Assembly: GCA_964016885.1 (NCBI GenBank)
Contig: OZ024743.1
Location: 74,834,001-74,898,000, forward strand
Length of the DNA stretch: 64,000 nt
Direction of reading: 5' to 3'
From: Eledone cirrhosa
Taxonomy: Eukaryota
Below the pieces are notes generated by a model. The model ran no database searches. It had not been told where the DNA came from and worked only from the letters and a program-made list of their open reading frames with translations. A program made the position numbers and the translations under genes. This document shows positions 2,338 to 40,200 of the stretch, one piece after another (position 1 is the stretch's first letter; the number at the start of each line of letters is the position of its first letter).

Positions 2338-2385
2338 AACATTTGAAAAGATGGCTTTTGCAGACCCATCGAAACCGGTCATTTT
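2338..2385 (+). ncRNA. Minimal type I hammerhead-like motif, U3:A8 core variant
   Basis: at-TTGAAAA-gatgg[cttttgcagac]ccatc-GAAA-c-cg-GTC-at. Stem III is the palindrome ACCGGT; stem I is weak. Confidence 0.6.
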
Positions 2386-2844
2386 TTATACCCTTTATTA
2401 TTTCCTTACCTTATAAAATTATATGTTTTTTCACAAAAAAGTATTCTGTCTCTTATATATTCCATGTACCATTACCAACCTCAATTTTCTCTCTCTATAT
2501 ATATATACATGTAGATAAATCTACCAAAATGTACGGTAGTGGCCAATCCGTATGAAGGACTCAATGTAATCCGAATATCATGAAAAGAGAAGATGTATTC
2601 AAAAAAATTTTTCGGTGAAAATTAACGGAAAACAGAGTCAAGATAAATTAATAAAATAATGAATAAACAAAGAAACAGTTCCTTATATTAAAAAATTCAT
2701 CATTTTACGATCGTTTCTAGGATATATATGTGTTAGTGCTGGTATGCATATCCTATAGTTCTATGTAAAACTTTTACAAACTATCAGAGGGAGTATACAT
2801 ACCTACACATATATATGCTGTCTTCAGAAATAAAGATATTTTTT

Positions 2845-3285
2845 TATTGAAAAAACCAACAAAGATTTAATACAATAGGTCTGTTTGGGAACAGGTTTTG
2901 AATTGACCAATAGAAAGATAGTGAAGGTCAAGATAGTAATATAGTAGTAAAAGAACCTTAATTTATGGGTAGAGGAAGGTAGATTTCAGTTTTGGATGGA
3001 AAGAATATTATGAATGAAAGATTATTTTAGGGATGAGAATAGGTCATATGTTGACCTCAGAAATAATTATATTTGTTCATTGAATAAAACCAACAAAGAT
3101 TTAATATAGTAGGTTTGTTTGGGAACAGGTTTTGAATTAACCAATAGAAAGGTAATAATTGGCCAAATGGTAAAATAGTAGTAATTGAAATTTATTTTGG
3201 GGTAGAAGAAGGCAGATTTCAGTTTTGAATGGAAGGAGTATGAAGAATGAAAAGTTTATTTTAGGGGTGAAAATAGGTCAGGTCA
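2845..3285. repeat. Diverged tandem duplication, period ~236 bp
   Basis: aaaaccaacaaagatttaata...tttgggaacaggttttgaatt...agatttcagtttt...aataggtca occurs twice. Confidence 0.75.
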
Positions 3286-4018
3286 GTAAAAAGTAACACG
3301 AAAAGTTGCTGTTATAAAAGAATAATGCCAATGTAAATATCTAAGGAGACTAAAATTTTACGATAAAAGTGTTAGTGAAAAAAATATATATGGAATTTAC
3401 ATCCATGAAAAGAATATAAATTAATTTAATTGATGGGTATATTTATATTGATAAAATTATATTAATGCATATAGATATGATAAATAAGGGTTAGATGTAA
3501 TTGAAGAGTGCTGTTAAAGACGAGGGGAAATTAAATAAATATAAAAAGAATATATATATATATAATTATTGGGGGGGGGGGGGGGGGTTAATATATATAT
3601 ATATATATATATATATATATATATATATATATATATATATATATATATATAATAAAGTATGAATTCCTACGTGTAAACAATACATATAGGGAAACAAGTA
3701 TTATCCAACCGTATGCCAATGTGGTTCGATGGCGGGTTAATAAATTAACAAGCCAGAACATATAAAATCGAGGTACACGTACGAATTCATACATTATTAT
3801 TATTGATCCCCCCCTAAGGTAGAGATAAAATTTTGGCCGTTTGGACTGCTGCTATTTCTAGTGGCAGGACATTGACCTGTCCACCCTGCCTTTTGTCTTT
3901 GCACACGACACCAGACAGAATTATTTCTTTCATCATCCGCTTTCATTTGGGAATGGTTTTGTATGGCGTCAGTTTGTGATTTGAACTCGGGGATTTTATA
4001 ATCTCCGAGGGAGAAGAG

Positions 4019-4098
4019 CCTTCTGAGTATTGCTCCCTTCTCAATGGATATCCGCTTGGATTTTCCGTTTATTCTGGAGCATGAAACCGCGGTAAAGG
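4019..4098 (+). ncRNA. Type I hammerhead-like motif with one core substitution
   Basis: cctt-CTGAGTA-t-tgctcc...ggagca-t-GAAA-ccgcg-GTA-aagg. Stems I and II pair and stem III is the palindrome ACCGCGGT; G8 is replaced by U. Confidence 0.6.
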
Positions 4099-36855: not shown

Positions 36856-38722
36856 TATATATAACATATATAATATATATAACATGAATTTCTGAACCAG
36901 TATCTTTTCCTTGGGTGTAACCCTTAACAAGAAAACAAGAGCGAAGGAGAGGATGGGGGGGGGGGGCGAGAATAAGCGATAGACTACGAGAACGGTGGGA
37001 GAGATAGCAATATGAATAACAAGAGAGTAAACATATGAAAGAGTTTGGGTTATAACTGTCGCCATATAAAATATACTGAAGTAGCACTAAATAGCGCCAG
37101 CTTCTATAAACTTATGTTGCGAAAGAACGGTAAAAAATCTAATTTGTTTACTCCCAACATTAGATTCCAATGATAACTGACATCTGATTAATGAATTTGC
37201 ATTTTTACTATTACATTTGAAAAGAATCCATATTTCTCTTAAAAAGACACTTTACACGTATATATATATATATATATATATATATATATATATATATATA
37301 TATAAATTGATGAGCAGAACAAACAAACATTAAACAATCCTTTAAATAAATTATTGTAGACACCCTATATATCTCAGTGTGTACTTAGTGCTCAATGAGA
37401 TATTTACCTCATTTTTATATATATATATATGTGTGTGTGTGTGTGTGTATGTGTGTGTATGTGTGTGTATGTATGTGTGTGAATATGTATATGTATATAT
37501 GCATACATATAATACACACACACATATATATATATATATATATATACATACAAACATGTATATATATATATATATATATACATACACACACACACATGTA
37601 TATATATATATATATATATATATATATATACATACACACATATATATATATACACACACACACATATATATATATATATATATATATATATATATATATA
37701 TATATATTTACATACATACATACATGTATATATATATATATGCATGTATATACGGAGGATACATATACAAATATATATATATATACATGTATGTATGTAT
37801 ACACATATACATACATTTATGTATGTATATATAAATATATATATATATATATATATATAATGGGTGGGTGTGCGTGTGCGCGTCTGTGTGTATGCGAGTG
37901 TGTGCGTATGTGCGCGCGCGTATTTGTGTGTGTGTGCCAATATCTGTGTACGTGTGTGAGCCAGTAAATGTATAATCATTAATCATTCTTTAAAATTTAC
38001 TTCCTCTTCTTAATATTAATATTCCTCTCTCTTCACTTCATATGTTGTAGACTTCATGTAAATTCCCCCTAATTGTACGTCAGAATTCTTACCATTCTTC
38101 AAAATCATCAACTATTAAATGAACTTATTGAGAAAAAGTAAATACTTGAATAATTTAAATGAACCTTCGTCTGAAACAACCAAAAAGAAATTCTGAAAAA
38201 TTTTCATTGAAGGTTTTTTTGGAATAATACTAATTGGAATAGAAGAGTTGGATGTTCAAAGGTTTCTTTGAAATTCCATATCAAATAGAAGGCTAATACT
38301 TTTTATAAGGGTTAAGAAAGTATGATAAACGTTATATATCGTCAAGAGATCTATATAATACACATATATTCAAAAGTAGATAATTTGATTTAGAAATGAT
38401 CTGACACGGTGGGAAATAGAAGTCGTCTTGAAATAATGAATGTATATATATATATATATATATATAGAGAGAGAGAGAGAGAGAGAGAGAGAGAGAGAGA
38501 GAGAGAGAGAAAGAGATATGGGGGGGAGTCTCCGAGGCTGAGACCGGGGAGACAAGTAAGCATAGGAGTACTCATGGGAGAGTGGGTATAGAGTTATGTA
38601 AAATCCCGACCTCTTGGCACCACGGTCGGTTTTTTACATACCCACTATATATGTATATATATATGTGTGTGTGTGTGTATTTGTATACATTGCATTCTTA
38701 TACATATTATATATACTATATA

Positions 38723-39215
38723 CTAGCAGAAAAATCGACCTTCGGTACATGTGTAGTGTGCATTTTGATATTATACGCTAGTATATATGCATGTAGATAT
38801 GATATGTCAAATAAAATGGTAATTGACAATATACACAGAAATTGAAGAGAGACTGTGTTACACCCTCTTCTGTAATCAGTAACGTAATCCATGATACATT
38901 TAAAAAAGACGATATTATATATAAACTGCAGGAGAAAATTAGCGATGGAAATATATGCAATGACTTTATAACTGCTATAATATAATGGACGTTAACCGGG
39001 AGTGTTCACATTTGAAAATTTTAGAGAACTGAATCTTTAAATAAGCAGTAAAATTATTTATATCTAATCAAGAGTTACGAAATACCAAATTTAGTACATA
39101 AATTATGTAATATCCATTCATTATTTATTCAAAGTAATCCAACTTATTTTACAAACGAGAAAAAAATATATATTCTGGACGCAGTCCCGCACTGCTTTCT
39201 TTATTATAATTAAGA
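38723..39215 (-). mobile_element. Non-autonomous Helitron, copy 2
   Basis: Reverse complement of 26975-27454, with A|TC and CTAG|T ends. Confidence 0.7.
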
Positions 39216-39230
39216 TATATATATATATAT

Positions 39231-40200
39231 ATAACGAAGGAAATGTGGTAAGGAACCAGGTGAACCATAACGCACCAAAGTACTCAATACTTAGGGTAGT
39301 AGAGTGGGTAATAGGAACCAGTAAGACCCCGACGGCTCAGCTTAAGCCGTTTCGACGGCTAATTCTGGACTAAATGAAAATTTATCCTGGTATTTAAATA
39401 GCCGAGCTTCTCAAGGGGTAATTCCATATATGGTCAAAGTGATTGTCACAAGGATTGGTCACAAGTTAGTAGTAATTCTGTGATGGCAAATTTGTGGGGG
39501 AAGGGGTAGCTAAACCTGCCAGTAGGAGAAAAAGGGGAGGGGGTGGAGTAGACTCATTTATGCGTTGGTAGTGCCAGCTACAGCTGGGCGTGAGGTCAAA
39601 GAAGATACTAGGGAGGGGGAGGGGGAGGAAGTCGAAACGGTAGGTAGAACAATGAGGGGTAAAAATATATAAAAAAAAAAAAATACTGAGAGTGATAAAA
39701 AGCGAATAAATGTAAAGAAAAAAATAAGCAAATTCTACGACCTAAGTCTCTCGCTATAGCTAGGCTAAAGAAAGAAATTTATTTATTTCAAATTTATTTA
39801 TTTCAAATTTTAAATTAGCTAAATGTTAAATTGTGTTCGCTGGTCATTGTCCGCGTAAATGCCTTTGAAGTCAAGTTCGCGGGGTATAGCCCAAACACAA
39901 CCCTAGGCCCAGAGCCCATCACCCTCTCACCTTTCACTTCTTTTCTTCTGTGGCTTAAGTGTCCCAATTTTTTTTCTCCTTTTCCTCTCATTCATGGCAT
40001 TTATACCCCTTTCCTCTACTTTCCCATACAGCCGGATCTGCCCTTCTTTACTTAATTTTGTTTCATTACTTAATTTTAGTTTTATATTTTTTTTCATAAT
40101 TATGCAATTATCAATGGTTTTTAAGCCAACTCTGTAAGTGGAACACATGTAGTGAGACTAATCTGTGGAGAAATTAATTTTAAGATTGGTAGTTATGGTG
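39231..40200 (-). mobile_element. Unfolded parent of family A (PLE-type 3' region); distal boundary approximate
   Basis: 39231-39371 equals the family A tail plus one arm, then continues as unique sequence. 39960-40052 is similar to 63890-63985. Confidence 0.7.
39326..39419 (-). ncRNA. Type I hammerhead-like motif, U3:A8 variant, with long stem II
   Basis: acccc-TTGAGAA-gct-cggcta[37 nt]tagccg-tc-GAAAC-ggct-taagctg-agcc-GTC-ggggt. Confidence 0.65.

Follow-up and report, generated by a model that had tools for sequence, protein, structure and literature searches.

Hammerhead motifs with a U3:A8 core near the 3' ends of Penelope-like elements in Eledone cirrhosa

INTRODUCTION

In the active hammerhead ribozyme, positions 3 and 8 of the core are paired, and the canonical CUGANGA core carries C3:G8. 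In this study, we describe three hammerhead-like motifs, M1, M2 and M3, in which this pair is U3:A8 (UUGANAA) and which lie in Penelope-like elements (PLEs) of Eledone cirrhosa, within a stretch of 64,000 nt (GenBank assembly GCA_964016885.1, contig OZ024743.1, positions 74,834,001 to 74,898,000, forward strand) that is referred to below as the window. The closest described case is that of the Cercyon PLEs of Schistosoma mansoni, which have U3-A8 for C3-G8 and for which a dedicated descriptor gave about 1,300 hits (Cervera & De la Pena, 2014, PMC4209133). Natural U3-A8 cores have also been described as rare, with "several" examples, and as active in earlier in vitro work, where covaried 3-8 pairs were found to support activity (Perreault et al., 2011, PMC3088659). 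In the Hydra clade of PLEs, which is recognized by an RWK-like motif, DKT, a CxCX5C linker, a C-terminal GIY-YIG domain and (TA)n insertion, all of the motifs given in File S2 are C:G (CUGANGA), an octopus family included (Craig et al., 2021, PMC8557442). For the Poseidon PLE of Anolis carolinensis, cleavage by the hammerhead was reported to be protein-assisted and to be dispensable for insertion in vitro (PMC11167929).

The Eledone motifs have much in common with these systems. Like the PLE-associated hammerheads in general (PMC4209133), the families of M1 to M3 carry their motif in a terminal repeat behind a gene for reverse transcriptase (RT) and GIY-YIG endonuclease. Like the Cercyon motifs in particular, they are of type I, have U3-A8 in place of C3-G8 in PLE terminal repeats, occur as thousands of mostly single truncated copies and inverted pairs 100-700 bp apart, and share a palindromic helix III suited to dimers (PMC4209133). 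They differ from Cercyon in that helix III of M1 and M2 is a short palindrome instead of none, in the lack of an extra base after A9, in their larger number (>23,000 copies), and in the presence of the variant in two different PLE clades. M3 resembles the Hydra-clade hammerheads of File S2 in that its element has RWR, DKT, CxCX5C and (TA)n insertion and carries the motif close to the 3' end; it departs from them in its U3:A8 pair and in its helices, helix II being far longer and helix III longer as well (PMC8557442). The covariation is the same as in the cores described by Perreault et al. (PMC3088659), where it is rare, whereas in the Eledone genome it accounts for about one fifth of the motifs. 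Anolis Poseidon, in contrast, has a C3:G8 core, and its cleavage with the help of protein was shown (PMC11167929), whereas that of the U3:A8 motifs described here is predicted. No study describing U3:A8 for elements of cephalopods or of the Hydra clade was listed in our literature search, and "U3-A8" occurs 0 times in the main text of 10.64898/2026.07.22.740005. M1 to M3 are thus a published variant in a new host and not a new ribozyme class.

RESULTS AND DISCUSSION

Judged from their sequence, M1, M2 and M3 are very probably hammerhead motifs of type I, situated toward the 3' ends of elements of three PLE families, with U3:A8 fixed in each family, and likely to cut themselves as ordinary PLE hammerheads do. 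The motifs and their host elements in the window are as follows.

2341..2382, + strand: M1, hammerhead motif of type I; its core reads UUGAAAA, helix II has 5 contiguous pairs and helix III is the palindrome ACCGGU
13659..13694, - strand: M2, hammerhead motif of type I; its core reads UUGAAAA, helix II has 4 pairs and helix III is ACCGGU
39326..39419, - strand: M3, hammerhead motif of type I; its core reads UUGAGAA, helix I has 5 pairs, helix II is long and helix III has at least 6 pairs
2301..2492, + strand: family 1 Neptune-type PLE, 5'-truncated 3' end with no coding sequence left; extent by BLAST against other copies
13585..17500, - strand: family 2 Neptune-type PLE, near-full-length and broken, with M2 near its 3' end; 5' limit approximate
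14821..17140, - strand: family 2 gene for RT and GIY-YIG, broken by stops and frameshifts; start approximate
39215..39778, - strand: family 3 Hydra-clade PLE, 5'-truncated 3' end; no coding sequence in the window copy

Each motif has helix II, GAAAC, helix III and GUH, and the core is complete in all three (U4, G5, A6, A9, G12, A13, A14, A15.1:U16.1 and H17), as is the G10.1:C11.1 pair. The key positions are U3 2343, A8 2348, G12 2371 and H17 = C2380 in M1; U3 13691, A8 13686, G12 13671 and H17 = A13662 in M2; and U3 39414, A8 39409, G12 39353 and H17 = C39331 in M3. The predicted cuts thus fall after C2380, A13662 and C39331, respectively. The extra unpaired base between 9 and 10.1, which is a trait of the minimal subtype and not of every PLE motif (PMC4209133), is absent from M1 to M3 and found in a related U:A family. 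All three helices are present in M2 and M3; helix I of M2 has 3 pairs in the window copy and 4 in the commoner subfamily, and helix II of M3 has a 2x1 internal loop after G10.1:C11.1, that is, adjoining the core. Helix I of M1 has just 2 contiguous pairs; of 24 matched copies, 17 have exactly the flanks seen in the window, and M1 takes another shape when folded freely.

The link to PLE genes recurs in several copies of each family. An RT/GIY-YIG gene lies 1.0-1.24 kb upstream of the motif in four family 1 loci (L069, L070, L076 and L089), and the motif also occurs downstream of a 765-amino-acid open frame in the block adjoining the window. The distance is 1.0-1.4 kb in family 2 (L032 and L087), a relative copy of whose gene (P0002) scores above the Pfam cut-offs for RVT_1 and GIY-YIG, and about 1.1 kb in family 3 (L011, L012, L015 and L030). 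A Pfam search with the family 3 protein P0004 gave no match, and no loci were recovered when the genome was searched with Pfam RVT_1, a result that is uninformative for PLEs. Family 3 shows Hydra traits, namely RWR and DKT in the L015 frames, CxCX5C in P0004 and (TA)n flanks; its assignment was made by this motif list, with no tree against named Hydra proteins. [quoted passage not shown] Inverted pairs and (TA)n flanks are frequent in all three families, and the best named relatives of the protein of one element are from Octopus bimaculoides (76%) and Argonauta hians (59%). The window copies themselves, two coding-less stubs and one broken element, are probably inert.

The Eledone genome (3.0 Gb) is AT-rich and microsatellite-rich, and chance matches in such DNA, or single decayed canonical copies, had to be considered as the source of the U3:A8 cores. 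We applied a three-helix descriptor with all 16 combinations at positions 3 and 8 to 1,064,000 bases, made up of the window and five blocks of 200 kb, of which one adjoins the window. The strict form returned 65 C:G, 16 U:A and 3 G:G motifs and four other pairs once each, and three local shuffles of the same bases gave a mean of 1.0 U:A, about 1 per Mb, and 0 C:G; enrichment is confined to C:G and U:A. M3 is left out by the strict descriptor (internal loop adjoining the core) and recovered by a relaxed one; a relaxed version found 87 C:G and 21 U:A among 118. Genome-wide, a U:A core with helix III fixed as GAAACCGGTH has 23,358 matches against 82 for the reversed-pattern control, and the M2 sequence predominates among the matches listed (100 of the 23,358). 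The same pattern with C:A gives 222 (control 38), with U:G 205 (control 66), and with C:G 119 (control 168), most of the listed C:G rows being one separate canonical family. The mismatched cores thus each amount to <1% of the U:A count, the level expected of single changes after insertion. U3:A8 is fixed in the source elements, and these counts are silent on selection among inserted copies. In family 3, with 3,833 first-look candidates and best copies 96-98% identical, U3 and A8 are kept in 30 of 30 fetched loci, and in older subfamily copies (81-84% identity) they are kept while N7 varies; in the Neptune-type U:A families the letters of helix II vary and its pairing is retained. The AT-richness of the genome, and the high control of a loose U:A pattern (35,144 against 72,082 matches), would speak for chance. 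However, the contrast of 23,358 to 82 once helix III is fixed, the near absence of such motifs from the shuffles and the uniformity of the families leave this explanation scarcely credible.

The loose patterns, which give counts of matches and not of verified folds, also indicate how common the variant is. C:G has 160,554 genome-wide matches (control 13,705), so that, with the U:A figures above, canonical C:G and U3:A8 stand at about 4:1 above control, and U3:A8 is a minority of about one fifth of the genome's hammerhead-like motifs. A census of all fetched DNA, which was tilted to U:A by targeted requests and in which a family means at least 2 distinct copies, yielded 37 families: 28 C:G, 8 U:A, 1 U:C (3 copies), 0 C:A and 0 U:G. 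An apparent C3:A8 family (L269-L271) lacks helix I and was not counted. Because a Watson-Crick 3-8 pair is retained in 36 of the 37 families, the census adds to the case for selection on PLE hammerheads.

A first-pass annotation of the window, made from its letters alone, had pointed out the three UUGANAA motifs, at 2343 (+), 13659-13694 (-) and 39326-39419 (-), and all three are there as it described them. Its proposal that they are borne by PLEs is borne out by the upstream genes, and its view of U3:A8 as a family norm and not decay by the family-wide U:A cores and the rarity of mismatches. In the families whose consensus it had asked for, the norm is U3:A8, not C3:G8. Its argument for selection likewise agrees with the paired 3-8 state kept across families and with the enrichment of C:G and U:A only.

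The same annotation took the three motifs to be unrelated, with stems that differ and a double change in each of three families. M3 does belong to a distant clade, and it has a long helix II and a stable helix III. M1 and M2, however, have the same helix III (ACCGGU), and the proteins of families 1 and 2 are 54.5% identical over 750 amino acids and 59.6% over 502. A search for relatives returned 65 loci in other collections, with a motif detectable downstream in 18, of which 17 are C:G and 1 is U:A; because 17 of the 18 are C:G, we take C:G to be ancestral. A tree of 32 rows unites M1 and M2 with a third U:A family and seven unlabelled database proteins in a single clade (96/99), which leaves out all 18 C:G rows, including a C:G sister family in the Eledone genome. 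One swap for M1 and M2 would be the simplest reading. The metagenome contig L331, with a U:A motif at about 3843, stands elsewhere in the tree as sister to a C3:G8 element; it is a single copy, unconfirmed by further copies, and its helix I is weak.

M3 is counted as a second origin because its clade is distant and the other families of that clade with a linked motif are mostly C:G (7 of 9 labelled rows), as are all of the Hydra motifs in File S2 (PMC8557442). The window thus shows two U3:A8 origins, not three, with M1 and M2 sharing one. Within the Hydra clade, a corrected approximately unbiased (AU) test of the two U:A rows does not reject one origin (p = 0.27). We rejected a link between a "GTCGG" U:A motif and a Hydra gene, since this gene already has a canonical motif and the U:A motif belongs to a separate 591-bp tandem unit. 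An earlier AU test (p = 5.5e-6) is void because that link was rejected. A quick tree of 42 rows was rooted on a very long branch and was not used for the root.

The annotation had further suggested a ribozyme class that CUGANGA-based searches would miss. That such patterns, and Rfam, miss these motifs is correct; the novelty is not, the variant having been published in both PMC4209133 and PMC3088659. In its strongest form, this idea would have three independent double changes mark a distinct and positively favoured U3:A8 class new to searches. It could draw on the occurrence of U:A in at least two distant PLE clades and in 8 of the 37 families, as well as in the unrelated L331 (single copy), and on the silence of Rfam. 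We consider it highly unlikely, in view of the single origin of M1 and M2 in the tree, the predominance of C:G by about 4:1, the earlier publication of both variant and descriptor, and the finding that no other architectural trait separates the U:A motifs. What follows for annotation is of modest value: CUGANGA patterns together with Rfam overlook about one fifth of the hammerhead-like motifs of this genome.

It is possible to outline how the motifs might work. Selection would act on the transcripts of source elements, where the 3-8 pair would be retained and its letters swapped now and then, and genomic copies would decay neutrally thereafter. The swap would have occurred at least twice in the elements of this genome, once in the common ancestor of M1, M2 and their Neptune-type relatives, and independently in the Hydra-clade elements to which M3 belongs. 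In folding computations, M1 forced into the hammerhead shape has +5.5 kcal/mol against -9.0 when free, and M2 +2.4 against -7.1, which suggests that neither can adopt the shape alone; ACCGGU forms a self-duplex of -8.3 kcal/mol, and the model suggests that helix III pairing between two copies would be possible. M1 and M2 are thus predicted to need a second copy, pairing through this palindrome, or the help of the element protein. M3 has -25.3 kcal/mol when constrained, with the three helices already in its free fold, which suggests that it could fold as a monomer, as predicted for its mode of action; its family has a palindromic loop as well, matching the dimer-permitting trait of PLE hammerheads. 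The predicted need of M1 and M2 for a dimer and the predicted monomer fold of M3 agree with the dimer model of PMC4209133 and with the protein-assisted cleavage of PMC11167929. The motifs would likely serve to process tandem precursor transcripts. Convenient material for tests is offered by M3, expected to fold as a monomer, and by the matched C:G and U:A families.

Several observations weigh against this account. Firstly, with regard to structure, M1 and two related families have a helix I of just 2 contiguous pairs, the lowest-energy fold of M1 is another hairpin in which the core is buried, and in M3 one lone pair separates the core from the internal loop of helix II. An Rfam search gave no hammerhead at M1, M2 or M3 up to E = 10, a miss that may reflect the reach of the models, which were not run singly on the canonical motifs of the window. 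Secondly, with regard to cleavage, inserted copies extend 74-162 nt past the predicted cut, and because they keep this sequence the inserted templates must have been uncut at that site. Likewise, PMC11167929 reported that insertion in vitro can do without cleavage and that RNA-seq ends are absent from the cut site. Thirdly, with regard to ancestry, the U:A group has a support of just 63/77 in a nine-row tree. Moreover, the Neptune label of families 1 and 2 comes from motifs and not from reference sequences; Nematis has the same linker and may fit.

These observations could also be taken to mean that the Neptune-type motifs are derived from hammerheads and no longer catalytic, the fold serving as a signal for protein binding or positioning and the short helix I being a relic of lost self-cleavage. 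The 2-3 pairs of helix I, the unfavourable monomer fold of M1 and M2 and the uncut state of inserted copies would fit this, as would the weak activity in vitro of metazoan minimal hammerheads (PMC4209133) and the independence of insertion from cleavage in vitro (PMC11167929). However, all catalytic positions and the 3-8 pair are retained across families whose proteins are 40-50% different, and the Penelope motif of Drosophila virilis was published with a helix I of 2 pairs (PMC4209133). We therefore regard a loss of catalysis as improbable and prefer to see in M1 to M3 hammerheads that are likely to cut.

A further finding concerns the starts of family 3 insertions. In the 1.064 Mb, taken as an unbiased sample, the start of 19 of 26 falls between 20 and 50 nt before H17, in most cases at -33 to -44, which is within helix II (U3 being at -83); the junction letters vary from copy to copy, and the whole core is kept in 3 of the 26. 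Copies of the family end at two alternative places, +20 and +115 relative to the cut; Anolis Poseidon likewise has two 3' ends and a tail beyond the motif (PMC11167929). Most of its insertions are short inverted stubs, of which three lie in the window.

470..680: inverted stub of family 3, with its junction within helix II and lacking the 5' half of the core
17697..17907: inverted stub of family 3, with its junction within helix II and lacking the 5' half of the core
52174..52384: inverted stub of family 3, with its junction within helix II and lacking the 5' half of the core

This cluster of starts would be explained if the reverse transcriptase stalled at folded RNA; if true, the stall inside helix II would be a genomic sign that the template carries the folded motif in vivo and that the motif influences truncation. 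Family 2 stubs cluster as well, 7 of 15 at -66 to -72, outside their motif; since starts in the two families are about equally far from the 3' end (some 150 nt), a length rule may be the alternative. Our search of the literature found no study of truncation inside PLE hammerheads. A wider proposal is that this genome, with about 180,000 above-control pattern matches and at least 37 families, offers a natural series from which selection on PLE hammerheads could be measured, C3:G8 having changed to U3:A8 repeatedly without an intermediate mismatch becoming fixed, together with a stall of Hydra-type reverse transcriptase inside helix II of a folded and uncut ribozyme. We put this forward tentatively and consider it rather doubtful as a whole.

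OTHER FEATURES OF THE WINDOW AND RELATED LOCI

Besides M1 to M3, the window contains seven canonical motifs and one decayed copy from other repeat families.

5231 (-), 7914 (+), 8592 (+), 45502 (-), 47858 (+), 61997 (+) and 62655 (-): canonical C3:G8 motifs of other repeat families
4023-4094, + strand: decayed copy, with C3:U8, of a canonical family whose helix II is long; of 16 copies parsed from 25 loci, 14 have CUGAAGA

Broken genes of two further PLE families lie at about 6250-7520 (-) and 9250-11470 (-); one is P0001-like, with the canonical motif at 5231, and the other is Hydra-like. A link between a fourth U:A family and a gene of the P0001 type was considered and rejected, this gene having its own canonical motif about 210 nt downstream. 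Elsewhere, a young Neptune-type family with a canonical core (L317:630-4291 (+), and L318) has copies 99% alike; its first frame, of 476 amino acids, overlaps a 775-amino-acid frame for RT and endonuclease in the -1 frame, and a Pfam search with the first frame found no match.

Tandem units with hammerhead motifs, resembling non-LTR (long terminal repeat) retrozymes, were found with U3:A8 (316 bp and 591 bp) and with a canonical core (311 bp), at L252 (G000:C1:6,515,000-6,524,000), at about 75,009,700-75,011,000 of G000:C4, and at L266. A multi-copy family (L150, L151 and L097) has a CCGAAGA motif, a U4C variant of the core, and a helix II akin to that of a canonical family.

Over the whole window, the best 150 of 358 Rfam rows were microsatellite-driven microRNA rows only. 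A near-perfect 100-nt hairpin at 5224-5329 is a source of spurious microRNA matches. Fragments resembling a non-LTR reverse transcriptase gene, interrupted by microsatellites, lie at about 19000-22400 (+), and a long 19-bp tandem array of about 119 or more units occupies about 57170-59700.

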